Counted from the stretch's first letter, positions 10,227 to 18,199 are shown. The stretch: DNA of 18,199 nucleotides from Myxococcales bacterium (GCA_020633555.1 JACKDL010000026.1:64001-82199); one strand, 5' to 3'. The notes: generated by a model from the sequence alone, not told the origin. Numbers and translations are program-made.

Positions 10227-11126
10227 ATGAACCGCAACATCGTGATGGTGGGGGCCGGGATCGTCGCCGTGGGCGCGTTCCTGGCCGTCTGGCTGCTGGG
10301 GGGCGAGGCCGAGATGGCCGAGGGCTCCACCCCGCGGACGATCCAGGGGACGGAGGGTGAGGCGGCGCCGCCCGCGCCGCTGCCGGTGCTGGGCAGCTCG
10401 GGACGCCCCGATGACCCGGAGCCGGCGCCTGCGGAAGGGCCCCGGCCGAAGGGCGCCGCCGAGCTGGCGCAGGCGCTGGTGGCGAAGCACAACCGGCCCG
10501 ATGGCTCGCTGCCGATGGATCCCGTGGGCGGCGACGCCGGGGTCCCCGAGGGCTGGGCCGAGGGGGACGCGCTGCCGCCGATCCCGATGATCCGCTTCGT
10601 GGCCGATCGCGAGGGCATCCAGGCCGCGGTGCAGGAGCGCAAGCGCCAGATCCAGGAGTGCTACGACGGCTGGGCGAAGTCGCCCGACGCGCCCGAGGGC
10701 AAGATCGTGGCGCGGTTCACCATCGCGCCCGGCGGGCCGGGCATGCCGGCACAGATCAAGGACGCCGGGCTGACGGCGAGCGGGCTGAACCACCTGGCCA
10801 TGGAGGGCTGCGTGCTCAACGCCCTGGAGGGCTTGGGCTTCGAGTCGCCCGAGGGCGAGGTCACCGTCAACTACCCGTTCACCTTCAAGCGGACGGGGCC
10901 GGCAGCGGCGGCGCCCGGCGGCGATCCGGCCGCGGCCATGCCGGAGCCGGGCGCTGAGCCGCCGCCCCCGCCGGGCGATCTGCCGGCGGCCTTCGAGCCG
11001 CCCCCCACCGACGTGCCGCCCGCCGGGGCGCCCACCGATCCGCCGCCCGCCGAGGATCCGCCGCTGCCCGATGTGCCGCCCTCGACGCTGCCCGCGGGGG
11101 ATCCACCGCCGGTGGACGATCCCTGA
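10227..11126 (+). CDS. Membrane-anchored protein with an AgmX/PglI-type C-terminal domain and a Pro-rich tail
   Basis: An N-terminal TM segment (IVMVGAGIVAVGAFLAVWLLGG) is followed by an acidic/Pro linker. Next comes a ~90-aa domain, IQAAVQERKRQIQECYDGW...GKIVARFTIAPGG...MEGCVLNALEGLGFESPEGEVTVNYPFTFK. It aligns residue-for-residue (CY, CVL, YPFxF) with the C-terminus of the gene at 16388-18199. The tail is a PPxP-rich 80 aa. Confidence 0.7.
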   Translation: MNRNIVMVGAGIVAVGAFLAVWLLGGEAEMAEGSTPRTIQGTEGEAAPPAPLPVLGSSGRPDDPEPAPAEGPRPKGAAELAQALVAKHNRPDGSLPMDPVGGDAGVPEGWAEGDALPPIPMIRFVADREGIQAAVQERKRQIQECYDGWAKSPDAPEGKIVARFTIAPGGPGMPAQIKDAGLTASGLNHLAMEGCVLNALEGLGFESPEGEVTVNYPFTFKRTGPAAAAPGGDPAAAMPEPGAEPPPPPGDLPAAFEPPPTDVPPAGAPTDPPPAEDPPLPDVPPSTLPAGDPPPVDDP

Positions 11127-11184: not shown

Positions 11185-11787
11185 ATGAGCCGGCGCTTCG
11201 ACCTGACCCCCACCACCGCGTTCTGGGCCTTCGTGGGCCTGCTGACGGCCTGCGGGCTGTACTTCACCGTCGAGGTGGTCCGCTACCAGAGCGCCCGCCG
11301 GGTGGCCCCCACCCAGGCGCCGCTGCGGGCCGGCGAGCCCATCGAGCTGGTGACGGTCATCGACGGCGACGAGCTGACGGCCCGGCGGGGCGACGAGGCC
11401 TTCGTGCTGCGGTTGCTGGGGGTGAAGTGCCCCATGGGCGACGGCGACGGCGCGCTGGCCGTGCACGGGCGCACCTGCCGCGACGCGCTGAGGGGCGCGC
11501 TGGCGAGCGGCACCCTCACCCTGGACTTCGACGGCGAGACCGGCGGCGTGGATCGCCACGGGCGGGTGCTGGGCTATGTGATGGCCGGGCGGCTGGATGT
11601 GGGGGCGGCCCTGGTGAAGCGCGGCGCGCTGGTGGCCTACACTGCCTACCCCTTCGGGCGTGAGGCCGCCTACCTGGCCGCAGAGGCCGAGGCGCGCGCC
11701 CAGGGCCGCGGCCTGTGGGCCGATCCGCAGGCGGTGGCCCAGGTGGACGCCCTGAAGCTCGCCTGGGCGAGCCAGCGGAGCGAGTGA
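11185..11787 (+). CDS. Membrane-anchored thermonuclease (SNase/micrococcal-nuclease-like) family protein
   Basis: An N-terminal TM segment (FWAFVGLLTACGLYFTVEVV) is followed by an SNase-like domain (VTVIDGDELTARRGDEAFVLRLLGVKCP...LTLDFDG...DRHGRVLGYVM.GRLDVGAALVKRGALVAYTAYPF...AEAEARAQGRGLWA). Some canonical catalytic positions look substituted (DTPE is replaced by KCPM). Confidence 0.6.
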   Translation: MSRRFDLTPTTAFWAFVGLLTACGLYFTVEVVRYQSARRVAPTQAPLRAGEPIELVTVIDGDELTARRGDEAFVLRLLGVKCPMGDGDGALAVHGRTCRDALRGALASGTLTLDFDGETGGVDRHGRVLGYVMAGRLDVGAALVKRGALVAYTAYPFGREAAYLAAEAEARAQGRGLWADPQAVAQVDALKLAWASQRSE

Positions 11788-11788
11788 C

Positions 11789-12850
11789 GTGCGGCGCCTG
11801 CTCCACGCCCTGTGGCTGCGGCTGCAGCACAGCTACGGCACCCAGCTCTTCCGGCTGGCGGTGCTGATCGCCGCCATCCTGTTCTTCAGCTCGTCGGGGC
11901 TGCTGTACTTCGAGATGCACGGGCGCCCCGATCTGAGCTGGGGCGACGCCGTGTGGTGGTCGGTGGTGACCATGACCACCGTGGGCTACGGGGATCTGTT
12001 CCCCGAGACGGTGGCGGGGCGCTACCTCATCGGCTTCCCCACCATGCTGTTCGGGATCAGCATCCTGGGCTACGTGCTGTCGATCACCGCGAGCGTGCTC
12101 ATCGAGGTACGCACCAAGGAGCTGCGGGGCATGAGCGACGTGACCTTCGAGGACCACTTCCTGCTGGTGCACTGGCCGGGGCTGGGCCGAGCCCAGGCGG
12201 TGGTGGGCGAGCTGCGGGGCGATCCGAAGACGGCGCGCACGCCCATCGTGCTCATCGACGACCGGCTCGAGGAGCTGCCCGAGAGCCTCGCCCGGCTGGG
12301 CGTGAGCTTCGTGCGGGGCAACCCCACCAAGCTCGACACCCTGGAGCGAGCCCACTACCAGAAGGCCAAGCAGGCGCTGGTGCTGGCCCGCGACCAGCTC
12401 GATCCGGCGAGCGATCACGCGACGCTGGCGGCGGTGCTGACCATCGAGCAGCTCCGCCCCGAGATCAACACCACGGGCGAGTGCGTGGATCCCGACAACC
12501 TGGAGCTGTTCGCCCGCGCGGGCTGTGACGACATGGTGTGCATCGCCCAGCTCAGCTCGAACCTGCTGGTGCAGGAGGCGCTGGATCCGGGCGTGCAGGG
12601 GCTGCTGCAGGAGATCACCAGCAACACCTACGGGCAGAGGGTGTTCGTGGTGCCCATCCGGGCCATGGGCACCTGGCGCTACCAGGAGCTGCTGGACGCC
12701 TTCAGCGGGGCCGACGTGCTGTGCATCGGCCTGCGCCACGAGGACGGGATGGAGCTGAACCCCGCGCCCGGGGCCCGGGTGCGGCAGGGCGACCGGCTGG
12801 TGTGCATCGCGCGGCAGCGGCCCGCGGAGTACGCCCCGGCGGCGAGCTGA
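11789..12850 (+). CDS. Two-TM potassium channel with a C-terminal RCK (TrkA-N-like) domain, MthK-like
   Basis: The GTG start sits 2 nt after the upstream stop. Two TM helices flank a pore helix with the selectivity filter TTVGYGD. A cytoplasmic Rossmann-like RCK region follows (HFLLVHWPGLGRAQAVV...PIVLIDD...VRGNPT). Confidence 0.85.
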   Translation: MRRLLHALWLRLQHSYGTQLFRLAVLIAAILFFSSSGLLYFEMHGRPDLSWGDAVWWSVVTMTTVGYGDLFPETVAGRYLIGFPTMLFGISILGYVLSITASVLIEVRTKELRGMSDVTFEDHFLLVHWPGLGRAQAVVGELRGDPKTARTPIVLIDDRLEELPESLARLGVSFVRGNPTKLDTLERAHYQKAKQALVLARDQLDPASDHATLAAVLTIEQLRPEINTTGECVDPDNLELFARAGCDDMVCIAQLSSNLLVQEALDPGVQGLLQEITSNTYGQRVFVVPIRAMGTWRYQELLDAFSGADVLCIGLRHEDGMELNPAPGARVRQGDRLVCIARQRPAEYAPAAS

Positions 12851-12854
12851 GCCC

Positions 12855-13088
12855 TCAGCCCGCGAACGGGGGCACGGGCTTGTAGCCGGCGTCCATGGGG
12901 GGCACGGGCTTGTAGCCGGCGTCCATGGGGGGCACGGGCTTGAAGCCGACGACCATGGGGGGCACGGGCTTGTAGCCGGCGTCCATGGGGGGCACGGGCT
13001 TGTAGCTCAGGTCGCTCTGCTGGGGGCCGGTGGCGGCCAGGACCGGCGAGGACAGGGCGAACAGGAACAGCAGGGCGAAGCGCTTCAT
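12855..13088 (-). CDS. Small Sec-secreted peptide made of five tandem YKPVPPMDAG decapeptide repeats
   Basis: 77 aa. MKRFALLFLFALSSPVLA|ATGPQQSDLS, then YKPVPPMDAG, YKPVPPMVVG, FKPVPPMDAG, YKPVPPMDAG, YKPVPPMDAG and YKPVPPFAG. The signal peptide is canonical with an AxA cleavage site. A GGAGG RBS lies 7 nt upstream of the ATG. The stop is 4 nt from the K+ channel stop (convergent). Confidence 0.7.
   Translation of the reverse strand: MKRFALLFLFALSSPVLAATGPQQSDLSYKPVPPMDAGYKPVPPMVVGFKPVPPMDAGYKPVPPMDAGYKPVPPFAG
12868..13007. repeat. Direct tandem array of ~4.5 copies of a 30-bp unit (ggcacgggcttgtagccggcgtccatgggg). It encodes the decapeptide repeats.
   Basis: The units start at 12871, 12901, 12931, 12961 and 12991. 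Copies 1, 2 and 4 are identical. Copy 3 has 4 substitutions. Copy 5 diverges after 16 nt. Confidence 0.9.
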
Positions 13089-13199
13089 GGGAGCCTCCAG
13101 GGTCAGGGTTCGCTCCCTCTTCCTGGAGCGCGTCGTCCTCCCTTTTGGCTCCAGACACTTTTCCCGGTCAGCCTGCGGATCGCAGCCCCGAGCCGCTGC
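13089..13199 (-). promoter_or_regulatory. Intergenic leader between the GNAT gene and the repeat-peptide gene, carrying nested inverted repeats. It may act as terminator, promoter or 5'-UTR structure.
   Basis: On the minus strand it reads ctggagc-N18-gctccagg-N20-cctggagg. The second stem includes the RBS. The segment is relatively AT-richer (cttttggctccagacacttttccc). There is no U-tract, so it is not a classic intrinsic terminator. Confidence 0.3.
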
Positions 13200-13735
13200 T
13201 CAGGAGAGGATCTCGGGCGGGGGCGGCGGGCGCTCGAAGCCGCGGCGCTGACAGCGGAACAAGAGGCGGTCGGCCCGGGGCGGGGCGGCGGGGGCGTCCA
13301 CGCCGGTGGCCACCTGCTCGAAGCCGAAGCTGCGGTGCAGCGCGATGCTGGGGCGGTTGGCCGCGGTGGTGGTGTACAGCACCGTGTCGGTGCGCTTGTC
13401 CAGCCACTCCAGGCGGCGCTTCGTGAGGGCGCGGCCGATGCCCAGCCGTCGCCAGCCCTCGGCCACGCGCACGCCCTGCAGGTACCAGCCCGTGGGGATG
13501 CGATCGGGGCCGCTGAAGGGGCGCTCGATCCAGCTCGCCCGGGCCACGGCCACCACGCCCTCGGCCACCTCGGCCAGCACCAGGAAGGTCTGGTCCGCCG
13601 GCACGCGCACGGCGAAGTCATGGGCCAGCCGGTCGGCCGTGGCCTGCGGCTCGCTGCCGGGCGGGGTCTGGAACTCCAGCATGGCCGGGATGTCGGCGGC
13701 GGTGGCCAGCCGGACCCGGTAGCTGCCGCCATCGC

Positions 13736-13739
<4 letters not shown>
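13200..13739 (-). CDS. GNAT-family N-acetyltransferase
   Basis: The GTG at 13737-13739 overlaps the upstream TGA (GTGA). It encodes 179 aa. LATAADIPAMLEF is followed by motif-A-like WRRLGIGRALTKRRLEWL and a C-terminal NRPSIALHRSFGFEQV. It is the in-frame C-terminal portion of track ORF 13200..14738, whose N-terminal 330 aa are an out-of-frame artefact across the hydrolase gene. Confidence 0.8.
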
Positions 13740-15075
<1,336 letters not shown>

Positions 15076-15076
<1 letters not shown>

Positions 15077-16356
15077 CACTCGCCGACCACGGTCCGTGTG
15101 ACGTCGTCGCCCCCGAAGTCGCTGGCCGGATCCAGCAGAGCGGCGTCGGTGTCGTCACCCAGCACGTGCCGCTTCAGGAAGGCCATGGCCAGGCCATTGA
15201 TGATGGGGTAGGCCTCGGCCACCGGCAGGAAGTCGGGGCCGCAGCCGTCGTTGGCGGCCACCTCGACGGGCAGGTCGCAGGCGTTGCTGAAGCTGAAGTG
15301 GCCCGCGTTGGGGAAGTCAACCCGCAGGCTGTCGGGCTGGGTGATGCCCGCCCACAGGGGGTCGCCCTCGGCGGCGTTGGGCAGGGTGGCGTCGCGGCCG
15401 GCGGTCATCATCAGCGTGGGCGTCTGCACCCCCGCCAGGCCGGGCTCGCCCCCGAACAGCGTGTTGCCGGCGGGGGTCATGGGGATCAGCGCCTGGAAGC
15501 GGTCGTCGGCGAAGCCCGCGCGGAAGCGGTCGGCCGCCCGCACGGTGAAGGCGCAGGCCTCCTCCTGGCCCGCGGGCGGGGCCTCGCAGGCGGCGAGCAG
15601 GGCGTCGACGGCATAGCCGGCGCCTCCCACTGCAAGCGTGGTGTAGCCACCGAAGCTGTGGCCGGCCAGCGCGCGCAGGCTGGGGTGGACCCGCCCGGCC
15701 AGCGGGTGATCGGCCGGCAGGGCGTCCACGTAGTCGGCCACCGCGTGGATGTCGGTGGGCCGCAGCTCGAACAGGCGCCAGAAGTCGGCTGAGCTGTCGG
15801 TGAAGGTGTTGCCGGTGTGATCGGGCGCCACCACCACCCAGCCGTGGCTGGCCAGGAACTCGGTGAAGAAGTAGCTCTGCTCGCCGAAGCCCCCGTTGCC
15901 GTGGCTGAACACCAGCACCGGCGCGTCGGCCAGATCGGCCAGGGGCGGGGCGCCGCCGAACACCTCGGGGCGTAGCAGCAGGTTGCCGTAGCGCACCCGC
16001 TCGCCCTCGCTGGCGGCCGTGGGGTACCACCAATGCAGGTCGAGCGGGCGCGGGGCCTCGAGCTCGGGCGCCGCGTACTCGATGGTCTCGACGTGGAAGC
16101 CGACGGCGAAGGGCCCCGGCTCGCCGGGGGCGGGCGGGTCCATGTCCGGGGGGGCCATGTCGGGCGCCATGTCGGCCGGGGCCATGTCGGCCAGGGCCAT
16201 GTCGCCCGCGCCCTGATCGGCCACCGCCTGATCGGCGCCGGCGTCCGCGGTGACGGCCCCGTCGGCGCCCTGCTGGGCGGGCGCGGGATCGCCGTCGTCG
16301 CAGCCGACGGTCAGCGTGAGGGCGAGCAGGGCGAGGGCAGAGCGGGTTCGGAGCAC
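15076..16356 (-). CDS. Secreted alpha/beta-hydrolase lipoprotein, PAF-acetylhydrolase-like, paralog 2
   Basis: The GTG at 16354-16356 has GAGG 5 nt upstream. N-terminus MLRTRSALALLALTLTVGCDD. A DMAP-repeat acidic linker follows. Then WWYPT, VLVFSHGNGGFGEQSYFFTEFLASHGWVVVAPDHTG and GHSFGG. About 45% identity to paralog 1 over the catalytic domain. The track ATG at 16440 would overlap the upstream gene by 53 nt and adds a non-signal-like N-terminus, so it is rejected. Confidence 0.8.
16138..16240. repeat. Short imperfect tandem repeats (units gccatgtcgg and cctgatcggc) encoding the DMAP/ADQ acidic linker of hydrolase paralog 2
   Basis: gccatgtcgggc, gccatgtcggccgg, ggccatgtcggccag and ggccatgtcgccc are followed by ccctgatcggccaccgcctgatcggc. 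The analogous ggcgtcgggctc x2.5 repeat at 14848-14884 encodes the DAEP linker of paralog 1. Confidence 0.6.
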
Positions 16357-16387
16357 GGGGACCTCGGGGCGCTTGGATCGGGCCGGC

Positions 16388-18199
16388 CTATTGGCTCGGG
16401 CTGAAGATGAACGGGTACGCGATGACGCACTCGCCCCCATCGGGCGGGGCCGGGAAGCGGGTGCTGCGGATCACGCCAAGGACACACTCGGCCACCGCGG
16501 CGTCGCCCAGGGTCGAGGACTTGACCTTGGCGCTGCGCACCTCGCCCTGGGGGGTGATGCGCCACTCCACGGTGAGCTTGCCCGACAGCGCGGCAGACTT
16601 GAGCAGGGCCCTCTCGTAGCAGCCCACCACCTTGCCCTGGTGCTGATCCACCGCCGTGCGCACCTGCCCCTTGCTGAGGCTGCAGCTCGACACCTTGGTG
16701 CGGCTGGACAGGTTGCGGACCTTGCCGCGGATGCGGCCGGCGCCCTTGGTGGTCTTCTCGCCCAGGCGACCCACGCGGGCGCCGATCTGCTGGCCCCCGG
16801 TGGTGGCCAGGGGCGCCTGGTCGCGGCCGATGTTCACGTCGCCGCCCGGCAGCGGGGCGCCCACCCCGGGCACCTCCAGGGCGGCGCCGGTGGCGCCCGC
16901 CTTGCCGACGGCGTCGATGTTGCTGGCCACGTCCTTCAAGGTCACGTCGTCGCCCGTGGGGGCGGCGTCGGCGCCCGCGTTGACCGCCGACAGCAGGGCC
17001 TCGGCGTCACCCTGCGCCTGCTGACGCGCGCGCTGCATCTTCCGGCGCACCTTCTGGCGCACCGAGGACGGGAGCTGGGGCGTGGCCTCGGCGGGATCCG
17101 AGGGCCGGGGCGCGGGGGCCTCCTTCGCCTTCGGCGCGCGCTCGGGCCGGGGCTTCGGCGGCTTGGGTGGCGGCGCCTTGGGCTTCGGCTTCGGCTTGAT
17201 CTTCGGCAGCTCCCGGGCGTCCTTCAGGCTGGCGAAGCGCTCCTTGGGCGGGGGCTTGGCCACCGTGAGCTGCACGCCCACCGCGTCCAGCGACACCACG
17301 CCCAGGGCGAACAACAGGTGGAGCACCGCGCCCGCGCCGAGCGCGCCCAGGTACACCCCCCATGGCTTGCGGCGGCCGGTGGCGCGGCCCGCGTCCCGCG
17401 CGGCGTGATCCACGCGGATCCGCCAGGTGGCCTGGGCCCAGCGCAGCTCGGCCCGATCGCCGGGCTCCAGGGGCATCTCGCTGGGGCCTTCGGGCACGGT
17501 CTCGCTGGCGCCCAGGTGCATGCGGCGGCCGGTGGCGCCCGCGGGGATGCACAGGACCACCCCCTGCCCGGTGTGACGCACCACCGGCTGGCCCCGCGGG
17601 AACCGGTCGCGGCTGTGGAGCACCTGCGAGGCGGCCACCACCCCGTCGACGATCCGCGCCACCTCCACCACCACGCCGCCCTGGCGATCGCCGGTGGGGC
17701 GGCCGCTGGTCAGGTCGCCCAGGATGGCGTCCAGGTGCTCTACGGCCGGCGGGCGTGGGGGCTCGGGATCGGCCCAGATGCTCGGCTCGAACCCGTCGGG
17801 GGGCAGGGTCAGGGCGCCGCGGGCCGGGGGCCGCCGACGGGGCTCGGCCTCGGGCGGGCGCACGGCGAAGAGCAGGTCGGTGAACTCGCCCGAGTCCACG
17901 GTGCGCTCGGACAGCGGGCCGGGCGCCTGGGGGCCCGGAACCACGGGCCCCGGGACCGAGCGAGTGGGCTCCTGGCTGGCGCTCGTGGCCTCGCCGGGCA
18001 CCCGGGTGGGCTCCTGCGAGTCGTCCCCCGGCCGCATGGGCACCTGCGCCGTGGGCTCGTCGGTGCCACGGGCCGGGTGGGCGAAGCCGGCGGCCCGTTG
18101 CGGCGCGGCGTGCAGGCGCGTGGGGTCGTCCTCGCCGGGGCTGGGCAGGGGCGCGGTGACCCGCGGCGGCACCAGCGGGGCGATCTCGCCGGGCGGCGT
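16388..18199 (-). CDS. PglI/TonB-like bitopic membrane protein. It has a cytoplasmic N-terminal region, one TM helix, a Lys/Pro-rich spacer and an AgmX/PglI-type C-terminal domain. The 5' end probably lies beyond the window.
   Basis: The frame is open to the window edge. The track start at 18172 is an internal GTG. Architecture: N-terminal ~280 aa with a possible degenerate FHA-like segment (PGDRAELRWAQATWRI), a TM helix (VYLGALGAGAVLHLLFALGVV), the spacer KIKPKPKPKAPPPKPPKPRPERAPKAKEAP, and a C-terminus VRTAVDQHQGKVVGCYERAL...AECVLGVIR...GGECVIAYPFIFS matching the domain in the 10227-11126 gene. Stop at 16388. Confidence 0.7.
   Translation of the reverse strand, partial: TPPGEIAPLVPPRVTAPLPSPGEDDPTRLHAAPQRAAGFAHPARGTDEPTAQVPMRPGDDSQEPTRVPGEATSASQEPTRSVPGPVVPGPQAPGPLSERTVDSGEFTDLLFAVRPPEAEPRRRPPARGALTLPPDGFEPSIWADPEPPRPPAVEHLDAILGDLTSGRPTGDRQGGVVVEVARIVDGVVAASQVLHSRDRFPRGQPVVRHTGQGVVLCIPAGATGRRMHLGASETVPEGPSEMPLEPGDRAELRWAQATWRIRVDHAARDAGRATGRRKPWGVYLGALGAGAVLHLLFALGVVSLDAVGVQLTVAKPPPKERFASLKDARELPKIKPKPKPKAPPPKPPKPRPERAPKAKEAPAPRPSDPAEATPQLPSSVRQKVRRKMQRARQQAQGDAEALLSAVNAGADAAPTGDDVTLKDVASNIDAVGKAGATGAALEVPGVGAPLPGGDVNIGRDQAPLATTGGQQIGARVGRLGEKTTKGAGRIRGKVRNLSSRTKVSSCSLSKGQVRTAVDQHQGKVVGCYERALLKSAALSGKLTVEWRITPQGEVRSAKVKSSTLGDAAVAECVLGVIRSTRFPAPPDGGECVIAYPFIFSPSQ

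Follow-up and report, generated by a model that had tools for sequence, protein, structure and literature searches.

A small gene for a putatively secreted decapeptide-repeat protein, probably gained recently in one uncultured Myxococcales lineage

In-frame variable-number tandem repeat (VNTR) surface proteins of bacteria include the Mycoplasma Vlp lipoproteins and the streptococcal alpha-C protein. These, together with orphan secreted repeat proteins, provide the closest comparison for a 77-codon mini-gene at 12855..13088 on the minus strand of an 18,199-nt stretch of DNA from a Myxococcales bacterium (GCA_020633555.1 JACKDL010000026.1:64001-82199). The whole of this stretch, referred to as the 18-kb window, was analysed, and all positions are counted within it. 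As in those proteins, a signal peptide precedes short tandem units with a length that is a multiple of 3 nt and near-identical DNA, alleles may differ by whole units (five versus two, the two-unit form coming from one contig) and the distribution is confined to a narrow lineage. Set against the VNTR surface proteins, the mini-protein is much smaller (59 aa when mature), lacks a lipobox or anchor, is not hypervariable and is unrelated to them in sequence. It is a homologue-less protein of a familiar kind, that of the small, secreted, taxonomically restricted tandem-repeat proteins. On balance we consider it probable that the mini-gene is a real orphan gene, gained recently by one species-level uncultured Myxococcales lineage in what is otherwise a gap of ~20 nt between a GNAT acetyltransferase gene and a K+ channel gene, and that it encodes a Sec-exported, unstructured, proline-rich repeat peptide.

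Tandem units of similar composition are found in the plant repetitive proline-rich proteins, (PPVYK)n. The mussel foot protein Mfp-1 carries decapeptide repeats, (AKPSYPPTYK)n (PMC6282983). The mini-protein has in common with these a ten-residue period (Mfp-1), a Tyr-Lys pair, Pro-Pro and secretion, which is predicted here. It differs in having five repeats rather than tens and in containing Met and Asp, and there is no tyrosinase, prolyl hydroxylase or peroxidase gene in the window; the likeness is compositional, with no homology. By analogy, this composition suggests an extended, sticky or cross-linkable polymer.

Repeated or Sec-exported units are also a feature of some precursor peptides. 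UstA and PhomA, the fungal dikaritin precursors, have a signal peptide and repeated cores flanked by KR (Kex2) sites, and are adjacent to tyrosinase and DUF3328 genes (PMC6514808). The mini-protein likewise has an N-terminal signal peptide followed by repeated short Tyr-containing units, but its units abut without recognition sites, no maturase gene is nearby and its neighbours are conserved without it. Bufferins are Sec-signal precursors of RiPPs (peptides made by ribosomes and then modified post-translationally); they are Cys-containing folded mini-proteins encoded beside MNIO (DUF692) and DUF2063 genes, and their biosynthetic gene clusters also occur in Myxococcota (PMC11626156). They are comparable in being small bacterial peptides with a Sec signal peptide, whereas the mini-protein has no Cys and no predicted fold, and there is no MNIO or DUF2063 gene in the window.

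The mini-gene and the segment in which it lies comprise the following features.

12855..13088, minus strand: mini-gene coding sequence, 77 codons plus stop; the sole frame with a coding signature
13094..13098, minus strand: Shine-Dalgarno sequence GGAGG, read from the sequence, 5 nt 5' of the mini-gene ATG
13089..13199, minus strand: mini-gene leader, 111 nt, from the GNAT stop codon to the ATG; lineage-specific along with the open reading frame (ORF)
13035..13088, minus strand: predicted Sec signal peptide, residues 1-18, MKRFALLFLFALSSPVLA, with cleavage between VLA and A; read by inspection
12858..13034, minus strand: predicted mature peptide, 59 aa; 27% Pro; 5 Lys, 4 Asp, 4 Tyr and 4 Met; no Cys, His, Trp, Arg or Glu
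12868..13006, minus strand: 30-bp tandem array (Tandem Repeats Finder: period 30, 4.6 copies, 94% matches, score 257)
12851..13199: lineage-specific segment, ~349 bp, leader plus ORF, between two convergent stop codons

The genome has a G+C content of ~73% and many spurious ORFs, so the frame of the mini-gene had to be tested. It runs from an ATG at 13088..13086, the first possible start after an in-frame stop and with no earlier in-frame start, to a TGA stop codon at 12857..12855, and translates as MKRFALLFLFALSSPVLAATGPQQSDLS-YKPVPPMDAG-YKPVPPMVVG-FKPVPPMDAG-YKPVPPMDAG-YKPVPPFAG followed by the stop. The G+C content at codon positions 1, 2 and 3 is 0.67/0.49/0.99 for the whole ORF and 0.64/0.46/1.00 for the 28 non-repeated N-terminal codons, compared with means of 0.72/0.50/0.96 for the 15 neighbouring genes. 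The probability of G or C at 28/28 third positions is ~1.5e-4 under the base composition of the window, and nearly all codons of the mini-gene are major codons of the host. Alternative frames (an overlapping minus-strand ORF at 12679..13158 and the plus-strand frames) contain stops or have no coding signature. The first-pass annotation, a reading of the window made before this analysis, had proposed the same frame and ribosome-binding site, and both stand: the minus-strand frame alone looks coding, and the GGAGG lies 5 nt before the ATG. Third-position G+C content, host-preferred codons, the GGAGG at -5, the signal peptide and the absence of a coding alternative frame together indicate that the mini-gene is very probably a real protein-coding gene, with expression predicted from these features.

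The mini-gene is also called in an independent metagenome-assembled genome (MAG; L183/L185). Its sequence was recovered from one NCBI MAG, five Logan contigs (three sequencing runs) and one ENA contig, and the ORF is unbroken in every strain-level variant recovered. Exact-sequence look-ups found neither the window's own 77-aa protein nor the second of two hydrolases encoded upstream on record. The NCBI label for an identical GNAT is 'Myxococcales bacterium', which supports a myxobacterial source.

In the leader, an imperfect 14-nt inverted repeat (13095-13108/13115-13128, minus strand) overlaps the GGAGG, which it could mask. Taken in full, the leader has no significant fold, and a sequence scan detected neither a sigma-70-like promoter nor an intrinsic terminator around it.

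The signal peptide consists of an n-region (MKR), an h-region (FALLFLFALSS), a Pro at -5 and a cleavage motif in which V-L-A is followed by A. Kyte-Doolittle hydropathy averages 2.25 over FALLFLFALSSPVLA. A lipobox is excluded by the lack of any Cys, and a twin-Arg is also missing. A charged n-region, an h-region, small residues at -3 and -1 and the lack of a lipobox or twin-Arg thus all point to a predicted Sec/signal peptidase I substrate. The earlier description of a textbook Sec signal peptide, and of a putatively secreted mini-protein made of near-perfect decapeptide repeats, agrees with this signal peptide and the five units that follow it, whereas the mature length given there (56 residues) has to be revised to 58-59 residues by the -3/-1 rule. 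In a single-sequence AlphaFold2 model the only helix spans residues 3-13, within the signal peptide, and there is no secondary structure after residue 18 (pLDDT ~61-68, pTM 0.17). The model is consistent with an extended or disordered proline-rich peptide.

Comparison with related loci places the origin of the gene. Two relatives have the GNAT and K+ channel genes side by side: L084 (sister) has 22 nt between the two stop codons and L085 (GCA_030424955.1; outgroup) has 18 nt. Neither gap contains an ORF, and both relatives lack the mini-gene at the orthologous position. The K+ channel of L084 is 94% identical to that of the window. GNAT identities are 83% between the window and L084, 70% between the window and L085, and 67% between L084 and L085. 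L085 is taken as the outgroup because its GNAT and that of L084 are 67% identical, as against 83% and 70% for each with the window. With L085 as outgroup and the gene absent from both relatives, parsimony favours a single gain in the lineage of the window over two losses. The mini-gene and its 111-nt leader (~350 bp) were therefore most likely gained recently in this lineage, as judged from the compared sequences. The best named relative by K+ channel is Paraliomyxa miuraensis (49%), in which the synteny of the K+ channel gene with an adjoining SNase-like gene is kept and the downstream genes differ.

Because its codon periodicity is perfect, the gene is less likely to have emerged de novo from non-coding DNA very recently, and acquisition of an already-coding sequence, from an unsampled high-G+C source or from elsewhere in the genome, may be the likelier origin. 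A rival explanation is that the ORF is a proto-gene without established function, recently acquired or arisen, expressed weakly at most, neutral and likely to be lost. Its presence in one lineage only, its absence at the syntenic site in both sister and outgroup, and its being mostly one amplified 30-bp unit would fit this, as would the apparent tolerance of a possible 90-bp deletion allele, described below. The four observed substitutions, three between units (Y>F, D>V, A>V) and one between strains (L27P), are likewise all non-synonymous, but this number is too small to show relaxed selection. The periodicity and host-preferred codons of the non-repeated part (28/28 G/C) speak against a proto-gene, a textbook signal peptide and Shine-Dalgarno sequence are not expected of raw intergenic DNA, and no recovered strain-level variant breaks the ORF. 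We regard this explanation as unlikely, although it deserves some weight.

By a wide margin, the 30-bp array is the strongest that Tandem Repeats Finder reports in the window; a 30-bp period, divisible by 3, and 94% matches give it the unit length and DNA near-identity of an in-frame VNTR. In the MDAGYKPVPP register three 30-bp units are 100% identical (12868-12897, 12898-12927 and 12958-12987), and a variant unit (12928-12957) holds all three differences, Y>F, D>V and A>V, each at the second codon position. The three identical DNA units described in the first-pass annotation are thus found in this register, whereas in the YKPVPPMDAG register only two are fully identical.

Recovered sequences differ in array length. 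A 509-bp ENA contig (L001, assembled with MEGAHIT) carries a two-unit allele encoding a 47-aa protein (P0001) that is otherwise identical; it matches the window through leader and ORF save for an in-frame 90-bp gap. This is the product predicted by recombination between unit 1 and unit 4, and equally by assembler collapse. An exact K+ channel match led to the MAG contig L183 (GCA_020430665.1), in which gene order and five-unit array, variant unit included, are unchanged. Compared with the window, its mini-gene carries a non-synonymous single-nucleotide polymorphism (SNP; L27P) and its K+ channel gene a synonymous one. The five Logan contigs, drawn from three sequencing runs, stop exactly at the array edges, as expected when three or more identical units are assembled with k=31. 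A search with the C-terminus of the K+ channel for further contigs across the array brought up none. Since a second independent assembly has exactly the same five units, the array is not hypervariable. The evidence for copy-number variation is suggestive: the two-unit and five-unit alleles lend some support to the earlier proposal of a copy-number-variable locus, and the identical arrays of two assemblies count against hypervariability. A further observation on L001 is that, compared with window positions 12640-13240, 207 nt of its K+ channel gene contain four synonymous SNPs and ~294 nt of leader and mini-gene contain none. The inserted segment might have spread recently, or the contig might be chimeric.

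A possible course of expression and action can be proposed. Translation would start from the mini-gene's own GGAGG and ATG, and the predicted product would leave the cytoplasm through Sec, with signal peptidase I cleaving after VLA, as the textbook form of the signal peptide implies. This would release a Cys-free, near-neutral peptide (5 Lys, 4 Asp) of ~59 residues with 27% Pro and no globular fold. From its composition and the AlphaFold2 model, it probably consists of extended, polyproline-II-like, protease-resistant YKPVPP segments joined by flexible MDAG linkers; resistance to general proteolysis would be expected because of the prolines. It may then act as a non-enzymatic, multivalent, weakly binding or adhesive peptide in the periplasm, at the surface or in the matrix, a role that we put forward tentatively. 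The Tyr/Pro-rich adhesive or envelope-associated peptide named as an alternative in the first-pass annotation is likewise a possible reading. The 30-bp array would grow and shrink in frame by replication slippage or unequal recombination, giving rise to the five-unit and, probably, the two-unit allele.

Several points weigh against this account of a recently gained, exported and functional repeat peptide. No donor of the ~349-bp segment was found by blastn against the window, the fetched loci, plasmids and phages, or by a scan of viral contigs. The search for maturases and paralogues covered the 18-kb window, and copies elsewhere in the genome are possible. All four observed substitutions are non-synonymous and so give no positive indication that the peptide is under purifying selection. 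The mini-protein has no signal for outer-membrane export or anchoring, and Sec export reaches the periplasm only. What the peptide does is read solely from its composition. As for the array, the two-unit allele was seen in a single short MEGAHIT contig, where collapse during assembly could have produced it, and variability may be low given that two assemblies have an identical five-unit array.

A predicted periplasmic peptide with spaced Met, Asp and Tyr might alternatively buffer Cu(I) or Ag(I), in the manner of Met-rich copper-resistance proteins. There is one Met per repeat, adjoining Asp, and periplasmic export is predicted; however, the peptide has only four Met, no His or Cys and no MxxM-type clusters, there are no copper-resistance genes in the window, and there is no similarity to any metal-binding family. 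Metal buffering appears highly improbable.

In database searches, the mini-protein stands apart from all but near-identical strains. A word-indexed search of 5.8 billion proteins gave a single match, the 47-aa near-identical allele P0001, and when 1.84 billion cluster representatives were searched exhaustively with phmmer, no homologue beyond near-identical strains was found. A set of 57 phmmer matches (E<=1e-3) was rejected, these being unrelated period-10 repeats, mostly translations of eukaryotic minisatellites (YRPIPPNTAQ and similar), with one actinobacterial Rpf-like protein. No family was found for the mini-protein in Pfam, NCBIfam or PADLOC, no match to the mini-gene in viral contigs, plasmids or phages, and nothing in a literature search for YKPVPP. 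The earlier impression that the protein has no homologue was therefore borne out across protein, cluster-representative, metagenome, family, viral, plasmid and phage searches, near-identical strains excepted. The mini-gene is taxonomically restricted (an orphan).

A search for the repeat motif in other Myxococcota had been proposed in the first-pass annotation; the metagenome scan and the synteny loci yield no homologue. A KPVPP ORF was absent from all 80 loci of a K+ channel synteny search that took one genome per species. A scan of metagenome DNA for KPVPP-x5-KPVPP returned 94 loci, none of them homologous: these were (KPVPP)n pentapeptide tracts, LPXTG surface proteins, or hairpin arrays with stops that resemble repetitive extragenic palindromic (REP) elements.

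These hairpin arrays raise the possibility that the mini-gene array is itself a non-coding minisatellite or REP-like hairpin array between convergent genes, the ORF being a by-product of high G+C content. High-G+C genomes do carry many spurious ORFs, and metagenomes do hold hairpin arrays with a 30-bp period that translate as ...KPVPP... (L101, L133, L137 and L152). The metagenome arrays, however, have stop codons and perfect hairpins (CACAGGxxxxxxCCTGTG), neither of which is present in the mini-gene array, and the RNA fold of 12855-13199 is unremarkable against shuffles (z = -0.25). With a third-position G+C signature, Shine-Dalgarno sequence and signal peptide all present and the other frames non-coding, we attach almost no probability to this explanation. 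Descent of the array from a 30-bp hairpin element was also considered and rejected: the similarity is imposed by the search pattern and there is no hairpin signal. The hairpin elements themselves (CACAGGxxxxxxCCTGTGCCACC...) lie on unrelated contigs, at L101 7958-8061, L133 601-644, L137 455-498 and L152 4155-4198. Their translations (HRLKPVPP, TGYKPVPPAR or TGWKPVPPAF) often contain stops, and in motif searches they turn up as false 'repeat proteins'.

The only PDB match is the Legionella protein IcmE/DotG (whole-sequence E = 7.5e-5). It was rejected as a periodic coincidence, the i-Evalue being at least 37 for each aligned stretch. The decapeptide (pentapeptide-type) repeats of IcmE/DotG have D-A-G-F/Y at a ten-residue period in common with the mini-protein, but the KPVPP half is not shared and there is no Pfam pentapeptide-repeat match even at E<=10; the A(D/N)LXX pentapeptide-repeat profile is not matched at this threshold. 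With three prolines per unit, a beta-helix is unlikely.

The genes adjoining the mini-gene are as follows.

13200..13739, minus strand: GNAT acetyltransferase gene; 4-nt overlap between its start and the hydrolase 1 stop; kept in relatives without the mini-gene
13736..15079, minus strand: hydrolase 1, alpha/beta, with a lipoprotein-like signal
15076..16440, minus strand: hydrolase 2, alpha/beta, with a lipoprotein-like signal; overlaps hydrolase 1 by 4 nt
11789..12850, plus strand: RCK-domain K+ channel gene, convergent; its stop lies 4 nt from the mini-gene stop

These coordinates agree with the earlier placing of a GNAT and two hydrolases upstream on the same strand. Because of the 4-nt overlap at each junction, hydrolase 2, hydrolase 1 and GNAT probably form one operon. 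The hydrolases match the PAF-AH (PAF-acetylhydrolase), chlorophyllase and PETase-like families in Pfam and NCBIfam, which are esterases or lipases and not peptidases. The GNAT has no signal peptide and no specific equivalog; all its NCBIfam matches are far under the family cut-off, the best being aminoglycoside and small-molecule N-acetyltransferase models. In L085 the gene order is one hydrolase, an unrelated formate-tetrahydrofolate ligase (FTHFS) gene, GNAT and then the K+ channel.

The first-pass annotation had likened the architecture to that of multi-core precursors, which the neighbouring enzymes could process or modify. On this reading a secreted signalling or bioactive decapeptide (e.g. 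MDAGYKPVPP, cut after Pro-Pro) would be released, perhaps acetylated or trimmed by the GNAT and hydrolases, by analogy with the dikaritin precursors or with pheromone and antimicrobial-peptide precursors that hold multiple copies. The signal peptide is indeed followed almost only by identical short units, five decapeptides in all. Upstream, on the strand of the mini-gene, come the GNAT and the alpha/beta hydrolases with predicted signals, and no terminator is predicted between them and the mini-gene. Sec-signal RiPP precursors exist in bacteria, as in the bufferins (PMC11626156), and precursors with a signal peptide and repeated cores exist in fungi (PMC6514808). However, the units abut, with no spacer or recognition motif (dibasic KR, GG or other), and Pfam and NCBIfam scans of the 18-kb window found no RiPP maturase, dedicated protease or peptidase, or exporter; genes for radical-SAM, YcaO, MNIO, P450, ATP-grasp, tyrosinase/DUF3328, prolyl oligopeptidase and peptidase-ABC exporter proteins are all missing from it. 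The GNAT and a hydrolase are kept in both L084 and L085, which do not have the mini-gene, and the FTHFS gene intervenes in the outgroup. Furthermore, the GNAT has no signal peptide whereas the repeat peptide is predicted to be exported, the hydrolases belong to lipase/esterase rather than peptidase families, and no related precursor was found anywhere, whereas RiPP families normally recur across taxa. Processing by the neighbours is thus unsupported, since spacers and motifs are absent and the neighbours are conserved without the mini-gene. In function the mini-gene is independent of the GNAT/hydrolase operon upstream, and we consider a multi-core precursor very improbable. The orphan secreted repeat peptide described above remains our preferred explanation.

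Some further observations concern the surrounding genes. Hydrolases 1 and 2 are paralogues with ~50% identity, and their overlapping stop/start codons are ATGA and GTGA, running into GNAT. Ahead of GNAT, L085 (1924-4932) encodes the formate-tetrahydrofolate ligase and only one hydrolase, which shares 64% identity with hydrolase 2; because of this single hydrolase, hydrolase 1 may be a lineage-specific duplicate. In both hydrolases the lipoprotein-like signals are followed by Asp/Ala/Pro-rich low-complexity linkers (e.g. DMALADMAPADMAPDMAPPDM), encoded by imperfect tandem DNA repeats at 14841-14987 and 16136-16228 (periods 12-36 and 15-30).

The 15 genes of the window were assigned with Pfam and NCBIfam to POT, Uma2, MlaC, MMPL, desaturase-like, SNase-like, K+ channel, GNAT, two lipase-like hydrolases and TonB_C, the others having no family. 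The SNase-like and RCK-domain K+ channel genes (11185..12850, plus strand) are 1 nt apart, and are also adjacent in Paraliomyxa and several MAGs (L020, L028, L003 and L084). The SNase-like protein matches the PADLOC candidate-defence model PDLC01096 'SNc+LTD' (E = 1.4e-10). This conserved nuclease-channel pair might be a functional module. Two other proline-rich proteins are encoded in the window, neither with a KPVPP unit. One (10227..11126, plus strand) has a hydrophobic N-terminal segment, no Pfam family and a tail of PPPPPGDLPAAFEPPPTDVPP...; the other (16388..18172, minus strand) is a TonB_C-domain protein with a KPKPKPKAPPPKPPKP spacer.

A more far-reaching reading, which we offer as speculative and rather improbable, is that a secreted gene has been caught here very early in its existence: a cassette of ~350 bp (leader, Shine-Dalgarno sequence, signal peptide and one amplified 30-bp unit) would have been fixed between convergent genes in a single myxobacterial lineage while its unit number is still changing, and the peptide would already function, either as a multivalent ligand of polyproline-II type in the envelope or matrix or by supplying secreted decapeptides for social or predatory interactions. 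If this were true, the locus would be a tractable case of bacterial new-gene origin via a signal peptide and tandem amplification. Alternatively, the peptide would be the first Sec-dependent bacterial multi-copy peptide-signal precursor without a dedicated biosynthetic cluster. At present, the locus neither defines a new natural-product class nor addresses a long-standing question.

For annotation, the mini-gene illustrates that a 77-codon orphan ORF in a genome of 73% G+C is separable from spurious ORFs by third-position G+C content, codon usage, Shine-Dalgarno sequence and signal peptide. The main value of the locus is as a well-bracketed case of recent gene gain. If the mini-gene is expressed, this gain would be cleanly datable, given its absence at the same 20-nt junction in a relative with a 94% identical K+ channel, and it would bear on how bacteria acquire envelope and extracellular proteins and how these are shaped by in-frame minisatellites.

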